Part shown: positions 5,403-42,854 of the stretch, piece after piece
Layout: every line of letters starts with the position of its first letter
Numbering within the stretch: position 1 is the stretch's first letter
Assembly (NCBI GenBank): GCA_050258575.1
Contig: JBLMYZ010000047.1
Location: 1-47,121, forward strand
DNA from: Acidobacteriota bacterium
Lineage (GTDB): Bacteria > Patescibacteriota > Saccharimonadia > Saccharimonadales > Saccharimonadaceae
Direction of reading: 5' to 3'
Length of the DNA: 47,121 nucleotides
The notes under the pieces: generated by a model
What the model saw: only the letters and a program-made list of their open reading frames with translations
What the model was told of the DNA's origin: nothing
The model's database searches: none
Made by a program: the position numbers and the translations under genes

Positions 5403-7175
5403 ATGAAGTACCAGGTGAAAAAAGGGTTAGGGGCAACGCTAAAACGTGGTGGCGTTGAGTTTCGTGTCTGGGCGCCGTTTGCTCGTTCGGTGCATGTTGC
5501 CACGCCATATGTCCCCTTTCATACCGAAAACAAGCAGCAGATGAATCCCGAGAAAAACGGCTATTGGTCGTTGTTTGTACCAGATGTCGAGGCTGGACAG
5601 AGCTACAAATACCTCATCGAAACAGCAAATGGCGAGTGGCTCGAGCGCAATGACCCGCGGGCGCGTGTCTTGACCGACTCTGACCACGGCGCGTCTGTGG
5701 TTGTATCGAACGATTTTGAGTGGGGCGACGATCTGTTTATGCCGCTACCAAAAGAACGCCAGATCATTTACGAGCTTCACGTCGGTACGTTTAACCGGCC
5801 AGATCCGGCAACGCCAGGAACTTTCGCTGATGTTGTTGACAAACTTGACTACCTGCGCGATCTCGGCGTAACAACAATCGAACTCATGCCAGTTACGAGC
5901 ATGGCTGCCAACTCAAATGGCTGGGGGTATGCTCCAAATAGCGTTTTCTCGGTCGAAGCTGCGTACGGCGGCCGGCATGGGCTCATGACGCTGGTGCGCG
6001 AAGCTCATACTCGAGGCATAGGTGTGATTGCTGACCTTGTATATAACCACTTTGGGTCGGGTGATCTCTGGCGATTTGATGGTTGGTACGAACAAGACGG
6101 CGGCGGCATCTACTTTTACAACGACCGGCGCGGTGCAACGCCATGGGGGGCGCGTCCAGACTACGGACGACCAGAGGTTCGGCAATATTTCCTTGACAAT
6201 ATCGTCATGTGGTTTAACGAATATCGCCTCGATGGCATTCGTCTCGACGCGACTGCCTACATGCGCAACATCGAAGGCCATAACGACGACCCGGCGAACG
6301 ATATTGGCGATTCGTGGCAGCTGCTGCAAGATATTTCGCGGCTAGGCCATCATGTCCGACCTGGTGCGCTTATCGTAGCTGAGGACACTTCTGTGAACGA
6401 CTATATCACCCGCTCGGTTGACGAGGGCGGGTGCGGATTTGACGCCCAGTGGGGGCTCAATTATTCGCACGCTATCCGTACGCAAATGGGTCTGCCTGCG
6501 CCCTACCCGACCAGTCTCGAGGCCGAGCTACCCAAGATGTACAATGGTGCAACGTTCCAAAAGATTATTTTTAGCGACTCGCACGACACTGCGGCTAACG
6601 GTAACGCTCGACTGAACACCGAGATGACACCAGACAACCCAGAGAGTATCTGGGCTAGACGGCGTATGCTGCTCGCTGCGACCGCCGTGATGACAGGTAC
6701 GGGTATTCCTATGCTGCTGCAAGGCCAAGAGTTTATTCAGCACGGCGACTTTAACAGCTGGGAAGAGCTAGAATGGCAAAACGCTGAAAAGTTTGCCGGA
6801 ATTATTTTGGCGCATACGCACCTAACAGCGCTTCGTTTGAACGAACGCGGCGTGACCGCCGGACTGCTCGGCAACGGCGTGCATATATTTCACAACGACG
6901 TCACAAACAACGTACTCGCGTACCACCGGTGGGACAAAGGCGGTATTGGCGACGATGTGCTCGTGGTACTAAACTTTGGCGCAACGAAGTTTCCCGACTA
7001 CCAGTTTACGTTCCCAGTGAACGGCACGTACAGCGTCCAGTTCAACTCATCCGTCAAAGAATACGGTCATGACTTCCCCGAAGAAGAACTCACCGAGGTA
7101 ACGACAGATGCGAACGGGGTTGTCCATATGCCTCTTGCCTCGTATGGTGCTTATATTTTTTCCCGAAGCGCCTAA
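5403..7175 (+). CDS. GH13 alpha-glucan-active enzyme with an N-terminal CBM48-like domain (branching-enzyme or TreZ-like)
   Basis: VEFRVWAP..., YELHVGTF, GVTTIELMPV, DLVYNHFG, GIRLDATAYM, IVAEDTS, FSDSHD (GH13 regions I-IV). The exact specificity cannot be told from the sequence alone. Confidence 0.8.
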   Translation: MKYQVKKGLGATLKRGGVEFRVWAPFARSVHVATPYVPFHTENKQQMNPEKNGYWSLFVPDVEAGQSYKYLIETANGEWLERNDPRARVLTDSDHGASVVVSNDFEWGDDLFMPLPKERQIIYELHVGTFNRPDPATPGTFADVVDKLDYLRDLGVTTIELMPVTSMAANSNGWGYAPNSVFSVEAAYGGRHGLMTLVREAHTRGIGVIADLVYNHFGSGDLWRFDGWYEQDGGGIYFYNDRRGATPWGARPDYGRPEVRQYFLDNIVMWFNEYRLDGIRLDATAYMRNIEGHNDDPANDIGDSWQLLQDISRLGHHVRPGALIVAEDTSVNDYITRSVDEGGCGFDAQWGLNYSHAIRTQMGLPAPYPTSLEAELPKMYNGATFQKIIFSDSHDTAANGNARLNTEMTPDNPESIWARRRMLLAATAVMTGTGIPMLLQGQEFIQHGDFNSWEELEWQNAEKFAGIILAHTHLTALRLNERGVTAGLLGNGVHIFHNDVTNNVLAYHRWDKGGIGDDVLVVLNFGATKFPDYQFTFPVNGTYSVQFNSSVKEYGHDFPEEELTEVTTDANGVVHMPLASYGAYIFSRSA

Positions 7176-7194
7176 GCAACATCACCAAAACGTC

Positions 7195-7223
7195 TTCTCA
7201 GCCGTTAGCTCATCTGGTACAAT
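7195..7223 (+). promoter_or_regulatory. Promoter for the tRNA-Thr/tRNA-Tyr pair
   Basis: TTCTCA (7195-7200), 17 nt, TGgTACAAT (-10 at 7218-7223), about 20 nt upstream of the first tRNA. Confidence 0.5.
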
Positions 7224-7244
7224 ATGTGAGCACCTTTTGTTGAT

Positions 7245-7321
7245 GCCGATTTAGCTCAGCTGGTTAGAGCAGCTGTTTTGTAAACAGCAGGTCCTGGGTT
7301 CGAGTCCCTGAATCGGCTCCA
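7245..7321 (+). tRNA. tRNA-Thr (anticodon UGU), CCA encoded
   Basis: Acceptor GCCGATT/AATCGGC, anticodon arm GCTGT-TTTGTAA-ACAGC, T loop TTCGAGT. There is one U-U mismatch in the T stem. Confidence 0.88.
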
Positions 7322-7330
7322 TTTTAACAA

Positions 7331-7416
7331 GCTGGGATAGTGAAGCGGTCAAACACGACAGACTGTAAATCTGTTGGCTTTCGCCTTCGTAGGTTCGAAT
7401 CCTACTCCCAGCACCA
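7331..7416 (+). tRNA. tRNA-Tyr (anticodon GUA), long variable arm, CCA encoded
   Basis: Acceptor GCTGGGA/TCCCAGC, anticodon arm ACAGA-CTGTAAA-TCTGT, variable arm GGCTTTCGCC, T arm TAGG-TTCGAAT-CCTA. Confidence 0.9.
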
Positions 7417-7454
7417 ACTAAAAATAACCCTTTGCGGGTTGTTTTTAGTTGGTG
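7412..7454 (+). terminator. Long hairpin terminator that includes the 3' ACCA of tRNA-Tyr
   Basis: CACCAACTAAAAATAACCC-tttgc-GGGTTGTTTTTAGTTGGTG: 19 bp with one G-U. The inner stem is followed by a T-run. Confidence 0.7.
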
Positions 7455-7493
7455 CCATACAGGCCTCGTTATTTAATCGACCAAATCAGTAGC

Positions 7494-8547
7494 CTAGGAA
7501 ACAATAATATTTTGCGTGTTAGCCACCCAATCGTCAGAGTTGCCAATATTGCCTGCACTGCCAGCGGTATCACTGACTAAACTCTTTAGATTATCATGTG
7601 TGAACTTTCTGTTGGCTTCACGCATTTTTTTGAGTGTTTTTAGCAATTTGACAAACTGACCTATCGTGAGGGGCGCAATTTTCTGCTTACTTACTTTGTA
7701 GCCAACCGTATTTGCAATATGGAAAGTCTCGGCACTGTCAGTATGAATAGCCGGAGCGATAAAAATACAGTAGGCATTGTTATGCGAGTTCTCAAAATCT
7801 CTCAAGTGTCGCATAACTGGCTTCCCCTCGTTAAACCATTGATCACGACCACTTAACATCGTAGCCTCACAAATCATGTTGAAACTATCGTAAAAACACT
7901 CAATATCAGCCATACCGCCAGGAGCGGTCGACGTCGGTTCGTTGTCATCGCCAACTGGGTAATTTGGCTCAATCTCCTTCGCATCGTTCAATGCGTGGTG
8001 GCCCATTGTTGAAAGATATTCAAGCATTAGCACACGATTTTCAAAGTCGAAAATTTTTTCCAACTGCTCAATATATTGAAAGATGTTAGCTATTTTGTCT
8101 ATAGCGTAAATCAAAGATGTTAGTAAATACGATTTTTCTCTGGTGGTGATGATTATTTCTTCAAATAATTTTTCAATATCGTCCCTGATAATACCTATTT
8201 TTTGGCATTCTCTTTGTCGAAATATGTATCTGAAAAATTTTTGGAAAAATAGTTTTCACCATACCTCTTTACGTCAATATTATTGTAGTGCCTCAGGCAT
8301 TCTTTTAGCTTTTCTTCCCTGATATTCTCCTTGCCCAAATATGCAGAGTAGATGTGTGCGTTTGAGTTTAAATGTCGTTAACAATAATCTTCGAGCGGCC
8401 GTAATAGTGGTTAGCGACCGCGCCAGTTCCTGCAAAAATATCAGCGAAAGACTCAAGCTCGATCTGTTCTCTCTCAAGTATGCTATCGATAAATGTAAGT
8501 AGCTTTGTTTTAGACCCGAGGTAGCGCCGTTGGGTTATAGAAATCAT
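7494..8547 (-). pseudogene. Decayed restriction-modification remnant: the N-terminal half of a D12-class N6-adenine methyltransferase (two frameshifts) fused to the C-terminal part of a PD-(D/E)xK, AlwI-like restriction endonuclease
   Basis: From the ATG at 8547: MISITQRRYLGSKTKLLTFIDSIL...FADIFAGTGAVANHYYGRSKIIVNDI* (stop at 8368-8370). The sequence continues in another frame as NSNAHIYSAYLG...ENYFSKNFSDTYFDKENAKK* (stop at 8195-8197). It then continues as (I)GIIRDDIEKL...LLTSLIYAIDKIAN and runs without a DPPY motif into ...GGMADIECFYDSFNMICEATMLSGRDQWFNEGKPVMRHL... (ORF 7494-8114). Both frame breaks are 1-nt losses in homopolymers (T3 at about 8371-8373, A6 at 8198-8203). The region is conspicuously AT-rich. 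Confidence 0.65.
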
Positions 8548-8576
8548 TTTATTTCCAAAAAGTACAGTGTCGTTGG

Positions 8577-9233
8577 TTACATCACCACGCGGCGTGGCGG
8601 TTGGGCGATGCGTTTTGGGGCGCCGGACGGCACGGCCATAGACGAGGCTTTGGCTCGGAGATCGGCGGCGAGGTCGGGTTTGCCGGTGCGGTCGTAGGCG
8701 TCGGCAAGGATGGTTAGGCTCTGGGGATTTGGTTCAAGCTCGACGGCTTTTTCCAAAGCGGCGATCATTTTTTTGTTGTCGCCAAGTTTTTCCTGTACTT
8801 TGGCGTAAGCGACGTGCCGCGCGGCTAGGTTGCCCTCGAGCTGTATCGCCTGCTCAAACGCCAGGGCGGCTTTGTCATACGCGCCGGTTTCAAAGTAGAT
8901 CAAGCCAACGTTATGCAAGCTCGAAGCACTAGACTCAAGACTTTGAGCGATCTCGAAACATTCGATCGCGTCCTGGTACGCTCGCTGTTTGGCATACAAA
9001 ATACCTAGCCGGTTGTACGCAGTGGCGTTACGTTCGTCGACACGCAAGATAGTCAAGAGTGCCTTTTCTGCCCGCAGATATCGCTGGTCGTTGATACTTT
9101 CTTGTGCGACACCCCATAGTTTGTCCAGATACGACGACATCTTCGACGGCAGCTCGTTGCCCGCGTCGTCGATAGGACGCTGGTAGAGCAGTACCCAGAG
9201 ACCAAGCGCCATAAGAGTCAATAAACCTAGCAT
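8577..9233 (-). CDS. Membrane-anchored tetratricopeptide-repeat protein
   Basis: N-terminal TM helix (LLTLMALGLWVLLY) followed by several TPR-like 34-aa repeats (AYNRLGILYAKQRAYQDAIECFEIA, LHNVGLIYFETGAYDKAALAFEQAI...). Confidence 0.8.
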   Translation of the reverse strand: MLGLLTLMALGLWVLLYQRPIDDAGNELPSKMSSYLDKLWGVAQESINDQRYLRAEKALLTILRVDERNATAYNRLGILYAKQRAYQDAIECFEIAQSLESSASSLHNVGLIYFETGAYDKAALAFEQAIQLEGNLAARHVAYAKVQEKLGDNKKMIAALEKAVELEPNPQSLTILADAYDRTGKPDLAADLRAKASSMAVPSGAPKRIAQPPRRVVM

Positions 9234-12898: not shown

Positions 12899-13219
12899 TT
12901 ACATGCGGATTTCTGCGTCGCAGCCTGCCGGTAAGCTGAGGTTTTGCAGGCTGTCGATGGTTTTTGGCGTCGCACCGATAATGTCGATCAGCCGTTTGTG
13001 AACGCGCATTTCGAACACTTCCCCGCCCTTTTTGTACACATGCGGACTCTTGACAACCGTGTAGGTGCTGCGTCGAGTTGGTAGCGGCACCGGGCCGGCG
13101 ATCTGTGCGCCGGTGCGAACAGCGGTGTCAATAATTTGTTTAGCTGACTGGTCGATGACCTTGTGGTCATAGGCCTTCAAGCGAATACGAATTCGCGGGG
13201 CTGCAGGTTGATCTGCCAT
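12899..13219 (-). CDS. rpsJ: 30S ribosomal protein S10
   Basis: [37 protein letters not shown]....TV.KSPHV.KK..E.FEMR.HKRLIDI. Confidence 0.97.
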
Positions 13220-13390
13220 GCTGTAGTCTCCTTTGGCGAGCTAGTGCGCTAGAGAACCAGTAACGAAGCGTCTACTTGCGTACTAGGCTATTCGCTAACC
13301 AGCTACCTTATATTGTGTTCCGTAACCTGTGTATGAAACGTCTCTTCTCACGTCACACCCAGTTCTCGAAACGATGATATTACAAGAGAA

Positions 13391-13399
13391 AGTATACCA
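13391..13399 (-). promoter_or_regulatory. Extended -10 (TGgTATACT), candidate rpsJ promoter with a ~165-nt leader
   Basis: Minus strand: TGG TATACT at 13399-13391, immediately after the ldh stop. Confidence 0.45.
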
Positions 13400-13419
13400 T
13401 AGTGCTAGCAAAAAGAAAA

Positions 13420-14349
13420 CTACTGGCGAACGGTGTCGATTGCCTGGCGGACAACATCTGCTGAAGTGTGAAGTTTTGCCACCTCGTTGTCACTAAGTTC
13501 GTACCCGCTCAAGATCTTAACGCCTTCGTTGTTGACCGTGCTTGGAACGCCTAGAACAACGTCGCTCAGGCCGTACTCGCCGTCAAACAGCGAACAAACC
13601 GGGAAAATACTATACGTCGAACGTCGTAACGCCGTAACTACTTTGCAGATCACCAGGCCTATCGCGTAGTAGGTCGATTTTTTCGTCTCGATCACTTTGT
13701 AGGCGCGGTCGCGGATCTTTTGGTCGATCTCGCTGTAGTCGCGGTCCTCGTACCCGGGAAACTTGCGTAGCGCAATATCGCCGACATTTGCGCGCTCAAT
13801 GGTTGAAAACGACGAATCGCCGTGCTCGCCTAGCACATAGGCGTCAACTTCGCGGCTATGGACGTTTAGCTCGTCGGCAATTGTCGCCCTCAACCGTGAC
13901 GTATCAAGCGTTGTTCCAGTACCAAACACGCGGCCTTTTGGCAGCCCAAACTCAGTCGACGCGATATAGGTCAGCACATCGACCGGGTTCGCGACCATTA
14001 CTACAAACGGCTGTCGTCCATCACGCGTTATCTCTGTCAAAATGCTGCGAATAATACCTGCGTTCACTCCGAGTAACTCGAGTCGGCTCTGACCTGGTAG
14101 CTGCGGTGCTCCTGCTGTAATAACAACGATATCCTGGCTCGTTACTTCGTCATATGTGCCAGTTCGCACCAATACGCCGCTGTCAAAACCCATGGCATCG
14201 TTGATGTCCGCTGCCTGACCCCACACGAGCTGTTCGTTGACATCAACAAGAACGATCTTTTCGGCTACTTTGTTGAGCGCCATTGCGTACGCCGCCGCTG
14301 ACCCAACCATACCACCGCCGCCAACCACAAATACTTTTTGCTTCGCCAT
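13420..14349 (-). CDS. ldh: L-lactate dehydrogenase (LDH/MDH superfamily)
   Basis: KVFVVGGGGMVGSAAAY (NAD fold), VLVDV, ITAGAPQLPGQSRLEL, GEHGDS. Confidence 0.9.
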   Translation of the reverse strand: MAKQKVFVVGGGGMVGSAAAYAMALNKVAEKIVLVDVNEQLVWGQAADINDAMGFDSGVLVRTGTYDEVTSQDIVVITAGAPQLPGQSRLELLGVNAGIIRSILTEITRDGRQPFVVMVANPVDVLTYIASTEFGLPKGRVFGTGTTLDTSRLRATIADELNVHSREVDAYVLGEHGDSSFSTIERANVGDIALRKFPGYEDRDYSEIDQKIRDRAYKVIETKKSTYYAIGLVICKVVTALRRSTYSIFPVCSLFDGEYGLSDVVLGVPSTVNNEGVKILSGYELSDNEVAKLHTSADVVRQAIDTVRQ

Positions 14350-14382
14350 ATTGCCTCCCCTCTTTTACCTCGATTATACCAC

Positions 14383-14391
14383 AAGCACATA
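14383..14391 (-). promoter_or_regulatory. Extended -10 (TGgTATAAT) upstream of ldh (short leader with GAGGGGAGG)
   Basis: Minus strand: TGG TATAAT cgaggtaaaagaggggaggcaat ATG. Confidence 0.5.
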
Positions 14392-14395
14392 TAAC

Positions 14396-14420
14396 AAAAC
14401 CCCGGTGTTCCCGGGGTTTT
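14396..14420 (-). terminator. Intrinsic terminator after tuf
   Basis: AAAA-CCCCGG-tgttc-CCGGGG-TTTT. It is symmetric, and on the minus strand it is followed by TTTTGTT. Confidence 0.8.
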
Positions 14421-14447
14421 GCGGTCAGTTGCCTGTTTTCAAGGAAA

Positions 14448-15629
14448 CTATTTGTTGATCTTCGTGACAACACCAGCACCAACGGTGCGGCCGCCTTCGC
14501 GGATAGCAAAGTTGAGACCTTGCTCCATAGCGATCGGGGCGAGCAAAGTAACCTTGAAAGTCACGGTGTCGCCAGGCATGACCATTTCTTTGTCGGCTGG
14601 CAGCTCGACTTCACCGGTGACGTCAGTCGTACGGAAGTAGAACTGTGGTTTGTAGCCTTTGAAGAATGGCGTGTGTCGCCCACCTTCCTCTTTGGTGAGG
14701 ACGTAGACTTCAGCGTCAAACTCAGTGTGCGGGGTGATACTACCTGGTTTGGCAATCACCTGACCGCGCTCGATGTCGTCGCGCTCAATACCGCGGAGCA
14801 GCAGCCCGGCGTTGTCGCCAGCCTGACCTTGGTCGAGGTTCTTTTTGAACGCTTCGATCCCGGTGACGACTGTTTTTTGGCTTGGGCGGATACCGATAAT
14901 CTCAACTTCGTCGTTAAGTTTGACGATACCTTGCTCGATACGACCAGTTGCCACCGTACCGCGACCCTTGATACTAAAGACATCTTCGATCGGCATGAGG
15001 AACGGTTTGTCGAGGTCGCGAGTTGGCTCTGGGATGTAGTCGTCCATAGCGTGAACGAGCTCCATGATAGCGTCTTCGTAAGCAGCGTCGCCTTCGAGTG
15101 CTTTCAGAGCTGAACCTTTGATGATCGGGGCTTCACGGTCAAAACCGTTTTTCGCCAGCAGGTCGCGAACGTCCTCTTCGACGAGCTCAACCAGCTCAGC
15201 GTCTGCCATGTCCATCTTGTTCAAGAAAACAAGAATCTTCGGCACACCGACCTGTTTTGCGAGCAGCACGTGCTCACGAGTTTGCGGCATTGGGCCGTCA
15301 GCGGCTGACACCACGAGAATAGCACCGTCAACCTGAGCAGCACCGGTGATCATGTTTTTCACATAGTCAGCGTGGCCAGGCATGTCGACGTGCGCATAGT
15401 GGCGTTTTTCGGTTTCGTATTCTTGGTGGCTCGTTGCGATAGTAATACCGCGAGCTTTTTCCTCTGGTGCGTTGTCGATCTGATCGTACGCGATTGGTTT
15501 GTTGACGTCGCTTGGAAGTTTTTTCGCAAGCACAGCGGTGATCGCTGCAGTCAAAGTGGTTTTACCGTGGTCGACGTGACCCATGGTACCGACGTTGACG
15601 TGGGGTTTGCTTCGGTCAAAATCTGCCAT
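14448..15629 (-). CDS. tuf: Elongation factor Tu
   Basis: [21 protein letters not shown] and full-length EF-Tu similarity. Confidence 0.99.
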
Positions 15630-15805
15630 AGAGATTTATCACTCCTTCGTTAATTGTTATTGCCGCGACGCGACTATAAACATAGCGTCGCGCGCTTAGT
15701 TATCAATTATAAAGATTCTCTGTCAATCTGTAAAGTCCCATGTCGCGACTTCATTGCGATTTCCTTCAGGTTGTTTTCAGGAAGTTCCCAGTATAGTTGA
15801 GGTAT

Positions 15806-17104
15806 ATGAAAGACTCAACCAAACGTCTCTTGCTTATTTTTACCCTTGTTACCACGCTCGTACCGCCGTTTTTGCTACTGCCGTTTCCGGCACTCATGAC
15901 GCCAAGCACGGTCAGTGTTTGGCTGGCTGATACGCTCGGGTATGTCGGTATCGTCCTGCTGCTTTGGATGTCAGCCCTCGGAGCAAAAAGTCTCGCTGGG
16001 CTGGTGTTTCGCGACCTCGCACCAGTGTTGCAGTTGCACAAGTGGCTCGGAACATATGCTGTTGTCCTGATCTTTGCTCATCCGCTGCTAGTTATGCTAG
16101 GCTACGGCGAAACGCTCCTCTACCCGTTTCTGCCTGCTGTAGGCACGGTGTTTGAACGCGGCGTCACTCTGGGGCGTATTGGGCTATGGGTGCTGCTGCT
16201 TACGTGGGTAAGTTCTGCGCTACTACGCGGTCGAATGGCATTTCGCCCCTGGAAATATCTACATTACCTCGCCTACCTCACCGTACCCTTTGCACTACTT
16301 CATATTCCGAACACCGGGTCGTATTTTATGTCTGAAACGCTCGTCAAAGGCTACTTTTTGACACTCGTGGTAGCGTTTGTTGTCGTTACGCTTCTCCGTC
16401 TCCGCGGTTGGTTGGGGCTCGACACGGTAGCGTACCGCGTTCACGAACAGCAACGTCTGAACGAAACAGATTTTTTGCTCGTTCTTGAACCGACTGGTGC
16501 GCAGCGACTCCAGCCTCGGCGCGGACAGTATAGTTACCTGCGACTCGGCGGTATCAGTGAAGATCACCCATTTTCGATACTTGACTACGACCAGTCAACC
16601 GGTCGCCTGACGTTTGCTTACCGGGTCTATGGCAGCTATACGCGGCTAATGTCGCAGCTCCAACCCGGGCAGCTCGTCAAAGTTGGCGGACCGTACGGCG
16701 AATTTATGGCCGATATCGACTCGCACGATCGACTACTCGTGTATATATCGGGAGGTATTGGGATCACGCCGTTTCTTGCGCCGCTGCGCCACTACGCCGG
16801 CGGACGCGAACAATGGCTGTTCGCCGCCAACCGCACACACGCGTCGGCGAGCTTGCTCCGCGAAGCTTATAGCCAGATCGGCGATCATCTTGTTGCGGTA
16901 TTTAGCCGCGAATCCACGCCGCCAGGTCCCGGTGAGCGCCGCGGCCGGATCAACACAGATATGCTGCAAGAAGCACTCAAACACCCCGCACGCTACGAAT
17001 ATTACCTCTGCGGTCCGCCCGCCATGATGCACGACGTGTCGCTAGCGGTCGAGCGTCTCGCTGTTCCGCGTTCACAGATTCATGCTGAAAAGTTCGGTTG
17101 GTAG
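15806..17104 (+). CDS. Prokaryotic NOX/ferric-reductase-like protein: a 6-TM di-haem domain fused to an FAD/NAD(P)H dehydrogenase domain
   Basis: Bis-His pairs H-x13-H (LHKW...FAHP) and H-x12-H (YLHYL...LLHIP) in TM helices. HPFSI (FAD), GGIGITPF and YYLCGPPAMM (NAD(P)H). The start is ambiguous: ATG at 15806 or TTG at 15797. Confidence 0.8.
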   Translation: MKDSTKRLLLIFTLVTTLVPPFLLLPFPALMTPSTVSVWLADTLGYVGIVLLLWMSALGAKSLAGLVFRDLAPVLQLHKWLGTYAVVLIFAHPLLVMLGYGETLLYPFLPAVGTVFERGVTLGRIGLWVLLLTWVSSALLRGRMAFRPWKYLHYLAYLTVPFALLHIPNTGSYFMSETLVKGYFLTLVVAFVVVTLLRLRGWLGLDTVAYRVHEQQRLNETDFLLVLEPTGAQRLQPRRGQYSYLRLGGISEDHPFSILDYDQSTGRLTFAYRVYGSYTRLMSQLQPGQLVKVGGPYGEFMADIDSHDRLLVYISGGIGITPFLAPLRHYAGGREQWLFAANRTHASASLLREAYSQIGDHLVAVFSRESTPPGPGERRGRINTDMLQEALKHPARYEYYLCGPPAMMHDVSLAVERLAVPRSQIHAEKFGW

Positions 17105-17112
17105 ACGACCGT

Positions 17113-17916
17113 CTACGGCAACAAAATAACCTGTGCGTGATATGCCTGCGACAGCGGCTGCTCAAGCTTTGGTCGAATGAGCAGCACTGTCGCTAACACA
17201 TCGGCAACAAGCGCCGTGTCAGCTCGGACAAAACTTGCCACCACAGGGCTGTCGCTTGGCATACCCGTCGCCGGGTCAATGATATGATGTCGTTCTGTTT
17301 GCCCCTGTTTCCACGCCCGTTTGACGACCGAACTAGCCGCCAGCGCTCCCTGACGTATGAGCGTCTGACCAACTTGTTTGTTTGCGTTATGAGGATGTTC
17401 CAGAGCTATTTTGACCGGCTGTTTCGACGAAACATACAGGTCGCCGCCACCGTTTACGATAAACTGCGCGACACCGTGACGGCGCAGCAGTCTAGCATAC
17501 TGGTCGATCAACCAACCTTTACCAAGCCCACCAAAATCAATCACCGTCCCTTTTGTGACGGTAACGCGGTGTTTGTCCCAACTAAGCTTGGGTTTCTGCG
17601 GCCCCGGCGCGTCGTGAGCAACCCGTCCATATCCGAGCCGCTCGAGATCATTGCCAACCGGCACGTCAAATACACCGTCAGTTGTCTCGTGAAATTCACG
17701 CGTTCGGTCGAGCATCTGGAGTAGTTCTGTGGGCGGCGACACCAGTACGCCCTGCCGTGCGAGTGTTGCCACGAGCGAATCGTCGCGAAAACGGCTATAA
17801 CGCAGGTCAAACTCGGCGGTGTAGTGCTCGATCTCGTCACGACAGGCATGACCAATACGCTGGCCGTCTAGTGGTTCGATCCACCAGTGCGTTCCTATAG
17901 CGTCAAACTCGTACAT
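17113..17916 (-). CDS. apbE: FAD:protein FMN transferase (ApbE family)
   Basis: IDFGGLGKGWLID, NGGGDLY, HHIIDPATG. Confidence 0.88.
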   Translation of the reverse strand: MYEFDAIGTHWWIEPLDGQRIGHACRDEIEHYTAEFDLRYSRFRDDSLVATLARQGVLVSPPTELLQMLDRTREFHETTDGVFDVPVGNDLERLGYGRVAHDAPGPQKPKLSWDKHRVTVTKGTVIDFGGLGKGWLIDQYARLLRRHGVAQFIVNGGGDLYVSSKQPVKIALEHPHNANKQVGQTLIRQGALAASSVVKRAWKQGQTERHHIIDPATGMPSDSPVVASFVRADTALVADVLATVLLIRPKLEQPLSQAYHAQVILLP

Positions 17917-17919
17917 AGT

Positions 17920-18411
17920 CTAGGCCGTGGCTTGCGACGCGACATCAGTGAGCGTTTCGCTAAACGCTTCAGTTGTTAGGCTCGCTCCGCCAATACGGCT
18001 CGGTGACACCGTGATCGATTCTCCCACGACCGCGCTGTTCAGCCCGCTCTCGAAGCTGTCAATATACTGCTGCGACTCGTGATCGATAGAGCTATTCGAA
18101 GTTGAAACAGCGGTGATCTTGCCACCGGCAATAGTCACGGTCGTCGTAATACTATTTGAACCGTGTGGTACGCTGTACGATGTCGTTGCGGTGTACGTAC
18201 CGTCCTTGTAGCTCGCAGTTGTGGCAGTTGTCTGGTCGGTTGTTTCAGTGGTTGTTGGTGTTGTAGTCACGGCTTCGCTCGACGTAGGCGATGAGCTCGC
18301 CGGTGCGGTAGTAGTGTCTTGTTCGAGGAACAAAAACGCGCCTGTCGCGCCAGCTGCTGCCAAAATCGCGACCGTGCCAACAACAACAAATAGTTTATTG
18401 CGCGTATCCAC
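17920..18411 (-). CDS. Exported FMN-binding-domain protein (predicted ApbE substrate)
   Basis: Signal anchor, then a Thr/Ser/Pro linker, then YKDGTYTATTSY...VTIAGGKITAV...SRIGGASLTTEAF (FMN_bind-like, flavinylation-type GA[ST] motif). The start was taken at the GTG at 18411 (GGAG 8 nt upstream, overlapping the upstream stop). The ORF track extends it to 18513. Confidence 0.7.
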   Translation of the reverse strand: MDTRNKLFVVVGTVAILAAAGATGAFLFLEQDTTTAPASSSPTSSEAVTTTPTTTETTDQTTATTASYKDGTYTATTSYSVPHGSNSITTTVTIAGGKITAVSTSNSSIDHESQQYIDSFESGLNSAVVGESITVSPSRIGGASLTTEAFSETLTDVASQATA

Positions 18412-18725
18412 TAGTTTGTCTCCGTTTGCGGGGTTGTTGTGTCTGTGGTGCTCTGCGACTGGCTGCCCCGGTCTTTGATTGAACGTTGAAACATTGGTCC
18501 GTTGTCGCTCCACGCCCTGGTTGTGTCAGTATGTGCCTTCCCGACAAGATAGCCCATACCAAACCCGGCAAAAAACATCACCACAATAGCAACGATTGCT
18601 ACTATGAGCACGCTTTGGTTTTGTTTGACCGTCGTCGTCACGGATGCGGCGGGCGGGCTGGCCGGTGTCTGCGGCATTGCCACCGCTGTTTCCTTGGGTC
18701 CTTCGACTGCTTTCTTTGGCGTCAT
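18411..18725 (-). CDS. Small single-pass membrane protein
   Basis: One TM helix (VLIVAIVAIVVMFFAGFGMGYLV). The ATG at 18725 is preceded by AAGGAG. Confidence 0.5.
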   Translation of the reverse strand: MTPKKAVEGPKETAVAMPQTPASPPAASVTTTVKQNQSVLIVAIVAIVVMFFAGFGMGYLVGKAHTDTTRAWSDNGPMFQRSIKDRGSQSQSTTDTTTPQTETN

Positions 18726-18782
18726 ATATACTCCTTTTTTCATTATCGCAGCATACTATACAACGCTTTTCTGAAAAATGCC

Positions 18783-19850
18783 TTAAACCGTCGCGCGCTG
18801 CTCAGTCGCTGCGATATGGTCGGCTTTGGCGGCTTGGATTTGCCGGACAAACACCACGAGCCAGACAATAAATAACACGGCACTAATAAGTTCGAACATC
18901 GTAAACGAGATTCGTCCTTCAAACTGCCACATATAGTAGCTAAAAACCGCCAGCGCGGGCGCTAAAAAGGAAAAAATCGTGAAAATCCGCGTCACAGACG
19001 GCAGTAAAAACGGCGTGACTGACGCCAGCGCCAAGAATCCGACTGATGAGCCGTAACCAAATATCTGGTGAACCTGGTACGAAACATCAAACGGCACCAG
19101 CCCCACCCCGATCATCGCCCCGCCGATCACGACCAACAGACCGCGAATCACCGAAAACCGATACGGCCGCTCAATAACTCGCCCAGCCGTAATGTATTTG
19201 AGATCTTGCGTGAGGTAGTCGGCTAGCCCGACAATAAACACCCCGCTGAGGATCATCGTCAAATTGAACGCGTAGGCCGACGACGTCCCGCCGCTGCCGA
19301 GCGCGCTAAAATGAACCGACCACCAACCGTTGTCGCCAGCGGTGATCATACTCGCAAGCACGCCAGAGACAATAAACACCACAAGCGAACGCGCGAGCCG
19401 ATATGCGGTCAGGCTCGCTGCCGCCATATAGACCACGTAGTAGGTGGTAGCAGCGGCCGCAACGCCGATAACCACGATTGACACGCGGTCAAAAAAGATA
19501 TCGCCAATATAGTGCCCGACGAGGCTACCGAGCGCCGCAAACAACATAAACGCGATCGAGGCGTATACTACCGAAAACACACCGACCAGCACCCCGCGGC
19601 GCAGGCGAGCCAACTGCCGCCCCTCGATAACGATCTTTTGCGCCGAATCGCTGTAGCCGACAACAAACGCCGTCAACGCCACCGCGGCCGACACTAGTCC
19701 GCACAATACGCCCAGTTCGGCAACATCGGTCGTCAGTAGGTTTGTGTACAGCGACAGCGCCGGTAAAAACGCCGTAAAAACAACCGCAGCGAAAAAAGCC
19801 CCGACTAGTCCAAACGCCTCAATATCCTGCTGATACACGCGCCGTTTCAT
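18783..19850 (-). CDS. Polytopic integral membrane protein, function unknown
   Basis: About 10 hydrophobic helices. The ATG at 19850 lies 6 nt after a TATACT box. The ORF-track TTG at 19877 lies inside the fusA terminator. Confidence 0.65.
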   Translation of the reverse strand: MKRRVYQQDIEAFGLVGAFFAAVVFTAFLPALSLYTNLLTTDVAELGVLCGLVSAAVALTAFVVGYSDSAQKIVIEGRQLARLRRGVLVGVFSVVYASIAFMLFAALGSLVGHYIGDIFFDRVSIVVIGVAAAATTYYVVYMAAASLTAYRLARSLVVFIVSGVLASMITAGDNGWWSVHFSALGSGGTSSAYAFNLTMILSGVFIVGLADYLTQDLKYITAGRVIERPYRFSVIRGLLVVIGGAMIGVGLVPFDVSYQVHQIFGYGSSVGFLALASVTPFLLPSVTRIFTIFSFLAPALAVFSYYMWQFEGRISFTMFELISAVLFIVWLVVFVRQIQAAKADHIAATEQRATV

Positions 19851-19856
19851 GTCAAA

Positions 19857-19862
19857 AGTATA
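19857..19862 (-). promoter_or_regulatory. -10 box (TATACT) 6 nt upstream of the ATG at 19850
   Basis: Minus strand: TATACT tttgac ATG. Confidence 0.45.
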
Positions 19863-19875
19863 CGACCTTTCTGTC

Positions 19876-19910
19876 AAAAAATCACCCCAGGGTATTTCGG
19901 GGTGATTTTT
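19876..19910 (-). terminator. Intrinsic terminator after fusA
   Basis: Minus strand: AAAAATCACCCC-gaaataccct-GGGGTGATTTTTT. Confidence 0.8.
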
Positions 19911-19922
19911 GGTGCCGGGCGG

Positions 19923-22016
19923 CTATTTTGAACGTTTTTCGATAATCTCAGCCGCCACGTTCGGTGGTACTTCCACGTAGTCAGCAAGTTCCATAGTGCT
20001 GGCTGCGCGGCCCTGACTCATGCTGCGAATATCTGACGTATAGCCAAACATGTTCGCAAGCGGCACGAAAGCTTTGACAAGCTTGGCGCCGCCCATGAGA
20101 TCTTCCATCGCTTCGATCCGTCCGCGGCGCGAGTTTAGGTCGCCGATGATATCGCCCATAAACTCCTCTGGCGTCGTAACCTCTACCAGCATGACTGGCT
20201 CGAGAATAACCGGCCGCGCCTCTGGAATACCAGCTTTGGCCGCCAAAACACCAGCCAGTTTAAACGCCAGTTCGCTCGAGTCGACGTCGTGGTACGAGCC
20301 GTCATGTAGCGTGGCTTTGACACCGATAACCGGGTAGCCCGCCAAAATACCGCTCGACAAGGTTTCTTCGATACCAGCTTTGACCGCCGGGCGGTACTCT
20401 TGCGGCACGACACCGCCTTTGATCTCGTCAACAAACTCAAACCCTTCGCCGCTCTCGGTCGGCTCAAACTTCACCCACACATCGCCGTACTGGCCGCGAC
20501 CACCAGACTGTTTGGCATGTTTGCCCTGAACGTCCGATGTCCCGCGGATCGTTTCACGAAACGCCACTTGCGGTTCGCCGACGTTTGCCTCTACTTTGTA
20601 CTCGCGCTTCATGCGATCGATCAAGATGTCGAGGTGTAGCTCGCCCATGCCGGACATGATCGTCTGACCGGTTTCTTCGTCAGTGTGAATCCTAAACGTC
20701 GGGTCTTCTTCTGCCAAACGTTGCAGCGCGATACCCATTTTTTCCTGGTCGGCTTTACTCTTTGGCTCAACTGCGATCGACACCGGCGGTTCCGGGAACG
20801 AAATACTCTCTAGCGCAATCGGATGCGCTACGTCGCACAGGGTTGCGCCAGTCGTGATATCTTTCAGCCCAACAACAGCCGCAATATCACCAGCCGTGAT
20901 TTTGTCGATATCTTCACGCTTGTCGGCGTGCATACGCACGATACGTCCGACGCGCTCTTTTTCGCCAGTCATCGTGTTCAGAACGTAGCTACCGGCGTTC
21001 AGCGTCCCCGAGTACACGCGGATAAAAATCAGCTTCCCGACAAACGGATCACTCGCAATTTTAAACGCCAACGCACTCATTGGCTCGGCGTCTTCCGGTT
21101 TTCGGCCAATCTCGTCGCCAGTTTTTGGATTTTTGCCCCAGACTTCCCCGACGTCGATCGGGCTCGGCAGGTAGTCAACCATGATGTCGAGCAGTTTTTC
21201 GACGATCACGCCGCGACCATCGCCACCCGTCACCAGGAAAAAGTCTCCAGCAAGCACTCGCTTGCGCAGTGCGCTCTTGAGCTCGTCCTCGGAAATACTC
21301 TCCTCGCCCTCCTCGAGGAACCGCATCATCAGGTCGTCATCGGCCTCAACAGCGTTTTCAACTAGCAGACTGCGCGCATTTTTGGCTTTTTCCAGCATAT
21401 CAGCCGGAATCTCGCCTTGCACCAGCTCGTGGTCAGCGTAGTCAGTGTACGTGTAGGCCTTCATGTCGATCAGATCGATCACGCCATTGATCGTCTTTTC
21501 AAACCCGATCGGAATATGCACCGGAAAGGCATTTTTACTGAGGCGGTTATGGATACTTTCGAGCGATTTCCAAAAATCACCGCCAGTTTGGTTGATCTTG
21601 TTGATAAAACAGATACGCGGCACGCCGTATTTGTTCGCCTGGCGCCAGACCGTTTCAGACTGCGCCTCGACGCCCATTTTGCCGTCGAACACCGTCACTG
21701 CGCCGTCAAGCACGCGAAGTGAACGCTCTACCTCGGCTGTAAAATCGATATGACCCGGCGTGTCGATGATATTGATCTTGTGATCTTTCCAAAAACATGT
21801 CACCGCTGCGCTAGTGATAGTAATCCCGCGCTCTTTTTCCTGCGCCATCCAGTCGGTCGTGGCGCCGTCGCCGTCACCTTTGACTTCGCCGATTTTGTGC
21901 GTCAAACCCGTTCGGTACAAAATACCTTCGGTCGTTGTTGTCTTTCCCGCGTCAATATGCGCGATAATCCCGATATTTCGGAACTTGTTTAGGTCTGTAA
22001 TTTTTGGCGTTGCCAT
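19923..22016 (-). CDS. fusA: Elongation factor G
   Basis: [22 protein letters not shown] and full-length EF-G similarity. Confidence 0.99.
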
Positions 22017-32070: not shown

Positions 32071-35000
32071 CTATAGTTGTGTCGCCGTCACTGTCATACC
32101 TATAGTATATGTGCCGCTCGGCTGGGCTTTTGGTATCGTCTGCGTGAGAGTCACTCCCGTCAAGTCCCAGTTGCAGTACATAGCGGCTGCGCTAGTGGCG
32201 TTCATCAGTGTAACACTGTTAACTGTTCCCTCGACGAAGTTTCCAGAACTACCCAGCGCCACACCGGTGAGAGGACAGGATGAGGCAATCGCGCCAGTCG
32301 TAGGGTTGCTACTCAGTTGACCGCCGTACCCGTCGGTATCTATACCCGAGTCAGTTGCGTTTGCACCAGAGTCGTTAAAGTCATATTTGGCGCTCGAGTC
32401 AGATTTGTTCCATAGCGCTGTCGCACCGTCCGTCGGAGAAAGTGTCAAGTTCCAACCATTTGTCGCTAGTCCGTTGTAAACACGGATCTTTTTTGTTGCC
32501 GTCCCAAAAGTTGAGCTAGTTGACTGATATACCGATGTGTCAACGACACTGCCAACAAAGTCATATGTCGGATTTGCCAACACCGTGTTTGTCCCGTCCA
32601 CAAAGTCAACTGACAACACTCTCGCTGGAACAGTCAGCTCTGGTATGACAGAATACGCTTCGAGCGGCGTACCAGTGTTGTATACCATGCGAAAACAGTA
32701 CGTTCCTGAGGTTGCGTTGTTGTCTTTCAACGCAAAGTCCCAGAGCCCATCACTCCCAGTTGCTACCGCTCCTACCACTGCTGTCGGGTTGGTTTCGTTG
32801 TACTCCTGCATGATGTTCGTGTGTCCTGCATGGATCGGGTCGTTTGCGTTGGCTGTAGCGATATTGCCGTCGACAGCTGCTGTGTTGTTGTAGTAGGCAA
32901 TCCCCGACGTGGTCGTTACATCGGCGTATGTTTCTCCGTTAAAGCTAGTGTCGCACAGCCCGTCTGCCCCGCGAGTCGCAAACTGCAGCTTCAAACTCGC
33001 TGAAGAGAGGGTACTGTTTGTCACGTGCTGCGCCACCCGCAGGCGAAACGGCACACCACTCGCCGGAGCGTTCGTTACACTGTTCTGAGCCGCACCACCC
33101 AGAGGTGCTCCAACATCGACCACTGCCGCCTCGCCCACAATAGTGGTGGGTGTTAAAGTGATAGTCGCATGCGTTCCGGTGATACTAGCTGTTGTATTGC
33201 CCGGCGTCGTCGACGCAGTTGACGAGAGTGCGGCAGTCGATGTTCCTGAGGTGGTTGTCACACCGCCATCTGCACAGATACTACAGTTATATATTTGTCC
33301 GGTAGATGTATACCGCGACACTTCGAGTTTTGTGGCACTGCCTGAGTCGGTCGCTACGACTAAAGTTCCGTCGGTCAGCTGTGCGACAGACACACCGCCA
33401 TATCCAAGCGTTGGGTTTGGCGAGGTATACTGAGTATCCCAGACCAGTACTCCCGAGCTATTGAGCTTGGCTATGATTAGCTTGTTAGCATTCATAGAGT
33501 CTGCGACAACATACCCGCCGTCTGAGGTCATGACACCTCTTCCGGGCGCCGTCATAGTATTCAAAAGAGTTCGCCATACCGACGTCCAGCTACTGCCGTA
33601 TTTGGCAACGATCCCTTCACCCTGAACGAGAAACCCGCCGTCGGAGGTTTCATGAATGTCTCTGACCTCTCCCATAGACGACAATATATAAGCCCACTGC
33701 TGCGCGCCAGCCGAAGTATATTTGACCACATAGCCGACAGAACTAGCGAAACCACCGATGTAAAAACCCCCATCTGAAGCACTGTCGACAGCACTCACGG
33801 CTGCGCTCTCCGGCCACTCACGACTCCACTGAAATGTTCCAGATGCGTTATATTTGACGACTGCTGCATAGCTGTTGATGTCCTGAGTACTCCTGCCGCC
33901 AACAACGATGCTGCCATCGGTTAGTTCTGCAACACTGGAGCCGCTTGCCCCACCAGCCGACGCATTGTTTTTCCAAACACGACTCCATGACAAAGCACCG
34001 GAAGAGTCATATTTTACGAGAAGCAGTTGAGAATTCGTAGTACCAACCGCAACATACCCGCCGTCTGAGGTTGCTGTAACGTCATTGAATGTAGTGTTGC
34101 TAGCACCATATGTCCATCTGCGCATCCACGTCACTGTCCCATTGGCAGCATGTTTACTGATATACCCTCGTTTCTGAGTACTGACCAATATATCCCCAGC
34201 AGTCACATACCCGCCGTCACTCGTTGGGCGCACCGCGTATCTTTTCATATTAGTAAACCCTGTACTCGCAAAACTCTTTATATACGTTGAACTTGTAGTA
34301 GCGTCCTGGTTTTCAAACCAACGGTAAGCAGTCTGGCTGAGCGCGGGCGGAGTTCCCGGCGTCAGGGCAATCGTCACCCCGACGCTTTTGTACGAAGAAC
34401 CTGTCATTGTCTTTGTGCCTGACGCGCCGGCCGTTGACTGGACCACGTCTTGAGCTGCTGTTGGAACACCAGAGGCTTCATACACCCTTCTCGTCATACC
34501 GCTGCCGGCGGTCATATCTGTATAACCCGACACGCCGTAGGTTGCTACAACGAGCGCGTTCGCTGCCGTCGTAGTCACTGATGGGGCGGTGTATGTCATA
34601 CTGGCAGACGGATTTCTCTGCACCGCGCTGGTCATAACAGGGCTTGTTGTATCCACTCCAGAGTACGCCACGATACTCGCCGATGCATACACAGACCCCG
34701 TCCATGAGAACGTATATGATGTTTCACCCGGCGAGAAAAACTTGCCAAAAGTACGAAAAACCACGTCAAAGTTGAAAGGGCCTGTGGTATCATCCTGTAT
34801 ATTCGTCCAACCATCATCTGGATCTGGCATAAAATCAGACGTGGTATTTTTGATTGCCACAGAAGCAATCATGTAGTGTCCGCTCTGGACGCCTGTTGGC
34901 GCAGCGACGGTTATACTCGTACCTTGGGCCGACAGCGAGGACGAAGACGCCCCTACAAACCCTATCGCCGCCTGAGCTGGGCGGGTGATCCAGCTCGAGA

Positions 35001-35127
35001 CCAGAACGGCTGTGACTACCCCCATGATACCGATGAACTGCCAGGGATTTTTGACCCGACTAAACAACCGTGGAACATGTCCGCGTAACTTCAACCCTCC
35101 CTGGTGATTTTGCCTCGTCGTTATCAA
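32071..35127 (-). CDS. Large secreted or surface protein (1018 aa): signal anchor, beta-sandwich region, 7-8 beta-propeller-like repeats, Thr/Ser linker, C-terminal beta-rich domains
   Basis: N-terminal TM/signal sequence (FIGIMGVVTAVLVSSWITRPAQAA). Repeats carry a [TS]-[SD]-D-G-[GST] core: SDGGYVTAGD, SDGGYVAVGT, TDGSIVVGG, SDGGFYIGG, SDGGFLVQG, SDGGYVVAD, TDGTLVVAT. Each is followed by a W-containing strand (TWMRRW, LSWSRVW, FQWSREW, QQWAYIL, VWRTLL, VWDTQY). The exact start is uncertain: TTG at 35127. Confidence 0.75.
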   Translation of the reverse strand: MITTRQNHQGGLKLRGHVPRLFSRVKNPWQFIGIMGVVTAVLVSSWITRPAQAAIGFVGASSSSLSAQGTSITVAAPTGVQSGHYMIASVAIKNTTSDFMPDPDDGWTNIQDDTTGPFNFDVVFRTFGKFFSPGETSYTFSWTGSVYASASIVAYSGVDTTSPVMTSAVQRNPSASMTYTAPSVTTTAANALVVATYGVSGYTDMTAGSGMTRRVYEASGVPTAAQDVVQSTAGASGTKTMTGSSYKSVGVTIALTPGTPPALSQTAYRWFENQDATTSSTYIKSFASTGFTNMKRYAVRPTSDGGYVTAGDILVSTQKRGYISKHAANGTVTWMRRWTYGASNTTFNDVTATSDGGYVAVGTTNSQLLLVKYDSSGALSWSRVWKNNASAGGASGSSVAELTDGSIVVGGRSTQDINSYAAVVKYNASGTFQWSREWPESAAVSAVDSASDGGFYIGGFASSVGYVVKYTSAGAQQWAYILSSMGEVRDIHETSDGGFLVQGEGIVAKYGSSWTSVWRTLLNTMTAPGRGVMTSDGGYVVADSMNANKLIIAKLNSSGVLVWDTQYTSPNPTLGYGGVSVAQLTDGTLVVATDSGSATKLEVSRYTSTGQIYNCSICADGGVTTTSGTSTAALSSTASTTPGNTTASITGTHATITLTPTTIVGEAAVVDVGAPLGGAAQNSVTNAPASGVPFRLRVAQHVTNSTLSSASLKLQFATRGADGLCDTSFNGETYADVTTTSGIAYYNNTAAVDGNIATANANDPIHAGHTNIMQEYNETNPTAVVGAVATGSDGLWDFALKDNNATSGTYCFRMVYNTGTPLEAYSVIPELTVPARVLSVDFVDGTNTVLANPTYDFVGSVVDTSVYQSTSSTFGTATKKIRVYNGLATNGWNLTLSPTDGATALWNKSDSSAKYDFNDSGANATDSGIDTDGYGGQLSSNPTTGAIASSCPLTGVALGSSGNFVEGTVNSVTLMNATSAAAMYCNWDLTGVTLTQTIPKAQPSGTYTIGMTVTATQL

Positions 35128-42761: not shown

Positions 42762-42848
42762 GTTTTTCTACAACCCTTCATATTACTTGGAGCTTAGTAT
42801 ATAAGAGTTCGTCAAATATTTCCATAGGTTTCGCTGTTCGCTATGCGG

Positions 42849-42854
42849 TACAAT
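42849..42854 (+). promoter_or_regulatory. -10 box (TACAAT) 6 nt upstream of the ATG at 42861
   Basis: TACAAT aactat ATG. Confidence 0.4.

Follow-up and report, generated by a model that had tools for sequence, protein, structure and literature searches.

Some bacterial ferric-reductase-domain proteins are encoded in clusters with the flavin transferase gene apbE and a gene for a flavin mononucleotide (FMN)-binding protein, an arrangement described as the 'MsrQ-like' flavinylation system (Meheust, Huang, Rivera-Lugo, Banfield & Light, eLife 2021, PMC8238504). That work defined the system operationally by a PF01794 gene lying no more than five genes away from one for ApbE or FMN_bind; a C-terminal PF00175 domain on the MsrQ-like protein, present in 1437 of 1797 clusters, is typical but not obligatory. 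The proposed role is the transfer of NAD(P)H electrons through haems to an extracytosolic covalent FMN, and the system is broadly conserved in Actinobacteria (PMC8238504). This kind of system has been published by bioinformatics and structural modelling only (PMC8238504; mSystems 2024, PMC11334425), and flavinylation components were found to be 'strikingly underrepresented' in the candidate phyla radiation (PMC8238504). Here we describe a version from Saccharibacteria (TM7, Patescibacteria), found between tuf and fusA in the 47,121 nucleotides of contig JBLMYZ010000047.1 (assembly GCA_050258575.1), a stretch that we call the window. Three genes at this locus encode a ferric-reductase domain joined to an FNR-type domain (FRD-FNR), an ApbE and an FMN-binding protein (FMNb). 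They probably constitute a conserved transmembrane electron-export module of the MsrQ-like, ferric-reductase-domain class of flavinylation systems.

The window comes from a Saccharibacteria chromosome. The nearest relatives of its proteins come from metagenome-assembled genomes named Candidatus Saccharimonas, Saccharimonadaceae or Saccharibacteria, and activated-sludge and wastewater sequencing runs contain DNA near-identical to it. Between tuf and fusA, the list of open reading frames (ORFs) holds five genes, one on the plus strand and four on the minus strand converging on it. The features of the locus, with the basis for each in brackets, are as follows:

14448-15629, minus strand: tuf (ORF list)
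15630-15805: intergenic region shared by the divergent tuf and FRD-FNR genes (promoter scan)
15806-17104, plus strand: FRD-FNR gene, 432 aa, ATG start; an alternative TTG start lies at 15797, the ATG being more likely
16037-16039 and 16079-16081, plus strand: codons of the predicted haem ligands H78 and H92 in transmembrane segment (TM) 3 (alignment)
16262-16264 and 16301-16303, plus strand: codons of the predicted haem ligands H153 and H166 in TM5 (alignment, SpNOX profile)
17101-17116: palindrome across the converging stops (sequence reading)
17113-17916, minus strand: apbE, 267 aa (ORF list)
17920-18411, minus strand: FMNb gene, FMN-binding protein of 163 aa (ORF list)
18411-18743, minus strand: single-pass membrane protein, 110 aa (ORF list)
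18783-19850, minus strand: multi-TM protein, 355 aa, first in the local minus-strand string (ORF list)
19877-19910, minus strand: fusA intrinsic terminator (fold statistics)
19923-22016, minus strand: fusA (ORF list)

An initial annotation, made from the letters of the window, had described these five genes, the 8-bp convergent gap and the fusA terminator, all of which are confirmed. It had also proposed that the reductase works with ApbE and an FMN-binding surface protein; that combination stands, although the architecture itself had already been published as MsrQ-like (PMC8238504). As in the published clusters, the PF01794 gene of the window lies close to apbE, at 8 bp, and PF00175 is on the same protein. 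The window version differs in several ways: its ApbE is signal-less, its FMNb falls under the Pfam threshold and has an uncleaved anchor, its flavinylation motif is without the Asp, its genes converge and do not form one operon, and it is widespread in Saccharibacteria. Our literature search found no report joining Saccharibacteria and ApbE. The kind of system is thus already published, while the widespread, divergent Saccharibacteria version is new to the literature searched. It was plausibly overlooked because FMNb is too divergent for Pfam and neither partner carries a classical signal peptide.

Conservation of the locus was examined in a sample of one genome per species, comprising 39 loci that encode an FRD-FNR relative (cited below by L numbers), nearly all of them labelled Saccharibacteria. 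Neighbour families were defined by tblastn mapping and all-against-all ORF clustering. Only three families recur over these loci: FRD-FNR in 39, ApbE in 29 and FMNb in 27. The order is a plus-strand FRD-FNR gene converging on minus-strand ApbE and FMNb genes in about 27 of the 39, at 33-54% protein identity and in differing genomic contexts, and several of the exceptions are contig ends. On a distant contig, L044, FMNb-like, signal-less ApbE-like and FRD-FNR genes stand in one co-directional string. The association of the three genes goes far beyond chance, and their tight co-distribution across loci bears out the link that the initial annotation drew between the plus-strand gene and the apbE cluster. 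The points on which that proposal turned, namely the haem-ligand histidines, the acceptor Ser/Thr and this co-distribution, all hold.

The surroundings of the trio are less constant. It lies between tuf and fusA in about 13 of the 39 loci, whose tuf, fusA and FRD-FNR sequences are the most nearly identical to those of the window; in the other loci its flanks are unrelated. A synteny survey had been suggested at the outset, and while the trio is conserved, insertion at fusA|tuf is limited to this subset. Within the closest clade, insertions break up the str/S10 region widely, and 1-3.7 kb often separates fusA from rpsG. The ribosomal super-operon is generally broken up, so the location at fusA|tuf carries little functional meaning. 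The site is a chance outcome of genome rearrangement in this clade and has no part in the mechanism.

The plus-strand gene encodes a protein of SpNOX-type architecture, that is, a 6-TM ferric-reductase domain with two haem-ligand pairs and a cytoplasmic domain for flavin adenine dinucleotide (FAD) and NAD(P)H. Its Pfam matches are Ferric_reduct PF01794 (36.1 bits, cut-off 28) and NAD_binding_1 PF00175 (43.7 bits, cut-off 22), with FAD_binding_6 just under its cut-off. FAD_binding_8 and NAD_binding_6 were rejected as its families, neither giving a Pfam match to the window protein; FAD_binding_8 is touched by 7 of 14 orthologues. Counting residues from the ATG at 15806, H78-x13-H92 and H153-x12-H166 are invariant in an alignment of 14 diverse orthologues (42-53% identity), and the sequence carries HPFSI at 254-258, GGIGITPF from 316 (GIGITP 318-323) and CGPP at 402. 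Both bis-His pairs and the HPFS, GGIGITPF and CGPP motifs had been pointed out before and are confirmed. Hydropathy gives five TM segments plus TM5, and the AlphaFold2 model (predicted local distance difference test, pLDDT, 81.5) has six TM helices and an FNR fold.

When this model was compared with the PDB by Foldseek, the cryo-EM structure of SpNOX, 8qt6, ranked top (E 8e-19, TM-score 0.70/0.75), with DUOX, NOX5 and NOX2 behind it. The FRD-FNR family profile matches SpNOX at E = 1e-22 and aligns H153/H166 to SpNOX H129/H142, which have been named as TM5 haem ligands (PMC11564096). Taken alone, the dehydrogenase half scores slightly better on flavohaemoglobin-type FNR domains. The protein is retained by all the bacterial-NOX sequence filters of Hajjar 2017 (two His-x12/14-His pairs at least 20 residues apart, 3-7 predicted TM helices, and the motifs seen here as HPFSI and GIGITP). 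FRD-FNR relatives form 179 clusters at E <= 1e-30, so the subfamily is sizeable. SpNOX of Streptococcus pneumoniae (Hajjar 2017, PMC5676040; Dubach 2024, PMC11564096; PDB 8qt6, 8qq7) shares with FRD-FNR the layout of a 6-TM FRD and an FAD/NAD(P)H domain on one polypeptide, the His pairs in TM3 and TM5 and the absence of regulatory domains. In contrast, the two are only ~17-18% identical, and the FRD-FNR dehydrogenase favours FAD_binding_6/NAD_binding_1 over the NOX-specific FAD_binding_8/NAD_binding_6. The FRD-FNR gene is also linked to genes for ApbE and an FMN-binding protein. The SpNOX-type architecture proposed in the initial annotation is supported by the fold match and the profile; the label 'NOX-like' fits that architecture, and oxidase activity is putative.

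A second FRD-FNR paralogue (466-480 aa, with HPFSISS, GGIGITPF and CGPPPMM) occurs in the subclade L018, L019, L020, L024 and L039, for example at L020 8477-9919 on the minus strand. Its gene is transcribed divergently from the first and adjoins those of predicted secreted proteins of ~270 and ~200 aa.

FMNb consists of a short basic N-terminus, a TM anchor at residues 7-25, a Ser/Thr/Pro stalk at ~28-65 and, at the C-terminus, an FMN-bind1 domain. The window protein has no match to PF04205 (FMN_bind) at E <= 1 and no Pfam hit of its own, and a direct search of the PDB with its sequence gave noise only; the signal took the family profile and a predicted structure. At E <= 1, PF04205 is touched by 12 of 27 aligned family members (best 3.2e-6). 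The family profile matches PDB 8p2a at E = 1.8e-3, with G-G-A-S144 aligned to S-G-A-T. For the C-terminal domain, the AlphaFold2 model (pLDDT above 90) best matches 3o6u (prob 1.0) and next 8p2a; 3o6u is the FMN-bind1 reference structure in the mSystems 2024 paper (PMC11334425). There is also a weak NCBIfam PplA match of E = 1e-3, and several homologues bear the JGI label 'uncharacterized protein with FMN-binding domain', a few of them with a precomputed PF04205 match. The profile searches that had been suggested for the window proteins therefore returned Ferric_reduct and ApbE, and not FAD_binding_8, NAD_binding_6 or FMN_bind; the description of FMNb as an exported FMN_bind-domain protein with a Thr/Ser/Pro stalk is sustained by the FMN-bind1 fold seen in the 3o6u match and the profile.

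The predicted flavinylated residue is Ser144 (codon 17980-17982), within S-R-I-G-G-A-S-L-T. All ~27 Saccharibacteria orthologues keep the motif S-R-[IV]-[GSA]-G-A-[ST]-L-T-[TS]. In the wider FMNb family only Ser or Thr occupies the acceptor position, G-A-[S/T] forms an invariant or almost invariant core and position 4 is G, S or A, so that the flavinylatable Ser/Thr looked for in the 163-aa protein is conserved. The canonical flavinylation motif is D-x-x-[S/T]-G-A-[S/T]. In one tested system, D-to-A had minor effects only, and it was changes of the G, A and T that mattered. Two loci, L002 (~11.8-14.2 kb) and L032 (~1.9-4.0 kb), hold a tandem FMNb pair in which both copies carry SRIGGASLTT; one stalk of the pair is Ser/Thr-rich and the other Pro/Thr/Ala-rich.

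Basic residues precede the TM segment of FMNb and acidic residues follow it, and then comes the stalk of 40 Ser/Thr/Pro-rich residues. The homologues in actinobacterial-type contigs have a lipoprotein signal peptide and lipobox instead of the TM anchor. Because of this charge distribution, the stalk and the lipoprotein homologues, the sequence places the FMNb domain almost certainly outside the membrane. FMNb itself has the N-terminal TM anchor and no lipobox, and the anchor may itself count as a signal peptide. Tat export of a pre-flavinylated FMNb was considered and is not supported, as the N-termini read MDT[KR][NR]K.F with no conserved twin arginine.

ApbE is a genuine member of its family, as first annotated: Pfam PF02424 scores 134.4 bits (cut-off 25.6), with the domain starting at residue 25, and solved ApbE/Ftp FAD:protein FMN transferases in the PDB are matched at 9e-14 to 1e-13. 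The catalytic (FAD- and Mg-binding) motifs DFGGxGKGWLxD, NGGGD, HxIDP and ADxxaT are kept in 29 orthologues, which indicates that ApbE is under selection as an enzyme. Its compartment is less simple. The window ApbE has no signal peptide or lipobox. Among the 29 orthologues, 27 of them with readable N-termini, no signal-peptide-like hydrophobic segment was seen upstream of the conserved (Y/I)EF(D/E)A(I/L)GT start, where the open frame extends for only 0-63 codons (27 orthologues). The relatives in L040, L041 and L044 are likewise signal-less. A hydropathy 'TM segment' at 229-247 is no membrane anchor; it is the conserved catalytic helix (ADVLAT). Fusion of FMNb and ApbE by stop read-through, by which ApbE could be held outside the cell, was also rejected, since the orthologous pairs stand in frame relation 0, 1 or 2 with gaps of 1-267 nt; in the window itself, the apbE start is 3 nt past the FMNb TAG and both genes are in frame (TAG ACT ATG).

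Signal-less ApbEs characterised so far are cytoplasmic, as in the K. pneumoniae enzyme for fumarate reductase. Extracytoplasmic ApbE-dependent flavinylation, which the initial annotation took as established for such proteins, can therefore not simply be assumed here, ApbE being signal-less in every orthologue. ApbE accepts seven-residue tags, best at protein termini. Because of this, and because the FMNb motif lies 20 residues from the C-terminus, modification of FMNb inside the cell, before or during export, is conceivable. Alternatively, ApbE may be exported in a way not yet recognised, or its substrate may not be FMNb.

Two other described systems share parts of this locus. In the actinobacterial-type contigs L040 (8001-10821) and L041 (1222-4625), one of them named Pseudolysinimonas sp., the same ApbE/FMNb pair has another TM partner. 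This is the arrangement of the 'NQR/RNF-like' two-subunit system (Meheust 2021; Huang 2024), with ApbE and FMNb orthologous to the window pair: ApbE, which is signal-less, shares 36% identity along its whole length, and the FMNb domain 34-39%. It differs in that the partner is a 500-aa NqrB/RnfD-like and NAD_binding_1 fusion, not a haem FRD, and in that FMNb is a lipoprotein there and TM-anchored in the window. Flavin-based extracellular electron transfer in Listeria (Ndh2, EetA/B, FmnB, PplA) likewise combines an ApbE-type transferase with a surface-tethered FMN-binding protein and exports reducing equivalents from a fermentative monoderm-type cell. The Listeria route, however, runs through Ndh2 and quinone with no haem, FmnB is a lipoprotein, and PplA has two FMN domains. 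In addition, Listeria has an ECF exporter dedicated to flavin, which provides the FAD on the outer side of the cell (PMC9973259). None of these Listeria features is seen for the window module.

From the domain identities, the conserved ligands and motifs, the fold matches and the gene linkage, we infer that haem and flavin are bound, which way the electrons flow, that Ser144 is flavinylated and what the acceptor may be. Cytoplasmic NAD(P)H would reduce the FAD of the FNR-type domain in FRD-FNR. Electrons would then cross the membrane via two b-type haems, held by H78/H153 on the inner side and H92/H166 on the outer side, and at the outer face would pass to FMN attached covalently by ApbE to Ser144 of the stalk-tethered FMNb. 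The FMN bound to FMNb could in turn reduce an external acceptor, candidates for which are Fe(III), O2, quinones or flavins and a host-surface component; the conserved three-gene unit encodes no terminal acceptor. To a fermentative epibiont, the likely benefit would be NAD(P)+ regeneration, iron reduction or both. The structural study of SpNOX found a very exposed outer haem and raised a possible protein acceptor rather than O2 (PMC11564096), a proposal that fits a partner such as FMNb.

A haem enzyme in a genome that probably cannot make haem had seemed unexpected. Haem dependence of this kind already has a precedent in the phylum: haem scavenging was proposed for a Saccharibacterium with cytochrome bo3 and essentially no haem pathway (Starr et al., PMC6031116). 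In a later study, 36-64% of the groundwater Saccharimonadia genomes assembled from metagenomes carried cyoABCD.

Several observations weigh against an electron-export module. FMNb itself misses Pfam FMN_bind, and its motif lacks the canonical Asp throughout the family and, in the window, the [S/T] at position 4. ApbE has no export signal in the 29 Saccharibacteria orthologues or in L040, L041 and L044, yet FMNb looks extracytoplasmic. In L008, L010, L015 and L016, which are close relatives with the same fusA|tuf position, FRD-FNR occurs without ApbE within the locus. The RNA evidence for the locus, given below, comes from unstranded contigs that are possibly DNA. As a separate observation on those four loci, FMNb is found in three of the four with its motif kept, and ApbE is elsewhere in the genome or lost.

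FRD-FNR could instead be a stand-alone bacterial NADPH oxidase, converting O2 to superoxide/H2O2 at the outer haem, as is reported for SpNOX, with ApbE and FMNb merely adjacent and serving another function. The SpNOX architecture and best fold match, the bacterial-NOX motif filters, and the loci L010, L019, L036 and L042, in which FRD-FNR has no ApbE or FMNb nearby, would all agree with this. However, ApbE and FMNb are the sole conserved neighbours, in shifting contexts and in two gene orders, and the SpNOX structural paper questions whether O2 is the physiological acceptor, putting forward a protein instead (PMC11564096), which leaves a stand-alone oxidase very unlikely. An assimilatory ferric reductase would use the same electron path as the export module and dedicate it to reducing extracellular or chelated Fe(III) for uptake. 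We regard this as possible, though on the unlikely side: no iron transporter or Fur is conserved beside the trio in the 39 loci or the window, and SpNOX has very low activity of this sort (PMC11564096), even though the FRD superfamily includes ferric reductases, in the distant L044 genes for Fur and a Zip transporter lie a few positions away, and 153 MsrQ-like clusters are linked to VIT1 iron transporters (Meheust et al., PMC8238504).

A third alternative is flavinylation in the cytoplasm, where the target would be an inverted FMNb or some other protein, and FRD-FNR would either be separate or take electrons from the flavoprotein inside. Every ApbE orthologue is signal-less, and the characterised signal-less ApbEs, such as the K. 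pneumoniae fumarate reductase enzyme, are cytoplasmic. On the other hand, the charge pattern and long Ser/Thr/Pro stalk of FMNb are typical of exported proteins, its actinobacterial-type homologues have lipobox signal peptides, and a two-haem wire would be pointless if the FMN domain were inside. A wholly cytoplasmic system is thus highly improbable, and electron export to an external FMNb is the reading that we favour.

A broader proposal goes beyond the export module and is decidedly speculative; we think it unlikely to hold in full. The signal-less ApbE subfamily may act from the cytoplasmic side on a protein bound for export, recognising an Asp-less S/T-R-[IV]-G-G-A-[S/T] motif 20 residues from the C-terminus, so that FMN would be attached before or during translocation and no FAD export would be needed. 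The NOX-type/FMN wire would then be a general NAD(P)H-oxidising outlet of epibionts. The proposal would apply to Saccharibacteria and to the actinobacterial-type relatives with the same ApbE/FMNb pair. If it is true, a flavinylated protein would be identified as the natural acceptor of SpNOX-type enzymes.

Saccharibacteria are reduced-genome epibionts that are usually described as fermenters. A conserved NAD(P)H haem-and-flavin wire would add a redox outlet, iron reduction or O2 handling that metabolic reconstructions have omitted, and would imply reliance on scavenged haem and flavin. The published flavinylation census probably under-counts the candidate phyla radiation. The conserved pairing also makes FMNb a concrete candidate for the 'protein acceptor' of SpNOX, and the signal-less ApbE poses a testable question, namely where exported proteins get flavinylated.

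The two remaining genes between tuf and fusA are clade-specific local additions and not part of the core. Hydropathy gives 9 segments for the multi-TM protein, described as 9-10 TM; the initial annotation's ~10-TM protein is indeed a membrane protein, with 9 segments counted in the scan. Its start is likely ATG, preferred over the TTG at 19877 because the latter lies inside the T-run of the fusA terminator. The Pfam DUF998 match, at 26.5 bits, is under the cut-off of 30. Relatives are found in 5 of the 39 loci, and a search of 5.8 billion proteins returned 3 matches, one 99% identical and two distant ones with DUF998, of which one sits among unrelated transporters. The 110-aa single-pass protein has relatives in L002, L003 and L009 only. 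Both were considered as module parts and rejected on account of the few loci, the scarce homologues and the unrelated context of one homologue. The five-gene redox module first described therefore contracts to FRD-FNR, ApbE and FMNb, which are conserved.

Several details of the locus concern its expression. The GTG start of FMNb shares 1 nt with the TAG stop of the upstream 110-aa gene in a TAGTG overlap, by which FMNb is translationally coupled to that gene. The converging FRD-FNR and apbE stop codons are separated by an 8-bp spacer (17105-17112); in relatives the convergent spacers are also short (roughly 17-60 bp). A 7+7 palindrome, GTAGACG-AC-CGTCTAC (17101-17116), covers both stops, TAG 17102-17104 on the plus strand and TAG 17115-17113 on the minus strand. 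It has no U-run and is not an obvious terminator. The fusA terminator has a 13-bp stem, an 8-nt loop, an A-tract before it and a U-tract after it, with a folding free energy (dG) of -21.9 kcal/mol and z = -5.4; 0 of 200 shuffles fold as well. A consensus terminator scan did not list this hairpin at 19877-19910. Within 15630-15805, the promoter scan found a strong minus-strand promoter-like site for tuf (-35 at 15734, -10 at 15706) and no consensus promoter for the plus-strand FRD-FNR gene. The tuf leader also contains a GC-rich inverted repeat at 15662-15695 (GCGACGC...GCGTCGC), between the promoter-like site and the start codon, whose fold is not clearly better than shuffled sequence (z -1.7). 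Base composition gives no sign of recent horizontal acquisition, the GC fraction being 0.51-0.56 over module and flanks.

In one wastewater metatranscriptome, 82% of the region's sampled words are present. Its contigs, which are unstranded assemblies and may include DNA, cover all five genes at a word depth of 3-18, versus 8-33 for tuf/fusA. One contig spans the FMNb, single-pass and multi-TM genes, and another crosses the convergent junction. Contigs break at 19859/19951, that is, at the fusA terminator, a weak indication. At most, these data suggest that the five genes are probably transcribed. The convergent FRD-FNR and apbE transcripts may overlap across the palindrome, because a metatranscriptome contig runs across 17101-17116.

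Other parts of the window were noted in passing. At 12899-15629, tuf and rpsJ are separated by ldh, and the gene next after rpsJ is diacylglycerol-kinase-like and not L3/L4; the ldh reported next door to the module is indeed there, with Ldh_1_N and Ldh_1_C found. At 42843-44803, L15 and SecY are separated by genes for a VanY carboxypeptidase and a PGA_cap protein. A 1018-aa ORF on the minus strand (32071-35127), between trigger factor and ClpP, has only a sub-threshold Pfam match to beta-propeller repeats. A low-GC patch at 7001-9000 (0.45, versus ~0.53-0.55 elsewhere) lies just past tRNA-Thr(tgt) and tRNA-Tyr. Of the AlwI restriction endonuclease model, the minus-strand ORF within this patch (7494-8114, 206 aa) covers the C-terminal third only, and it looks like a restriction-modification or mobile-element remnant. 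Finally, 411-2044 encodes a 540-aa large serine recombinase (Resolvase, Recombinase and Zn-ribbon). At its 3' end the gene runs into the opposite-strand tRNA-Thr(ggt), an overlap typical of an element integrated at a tRNA gene.

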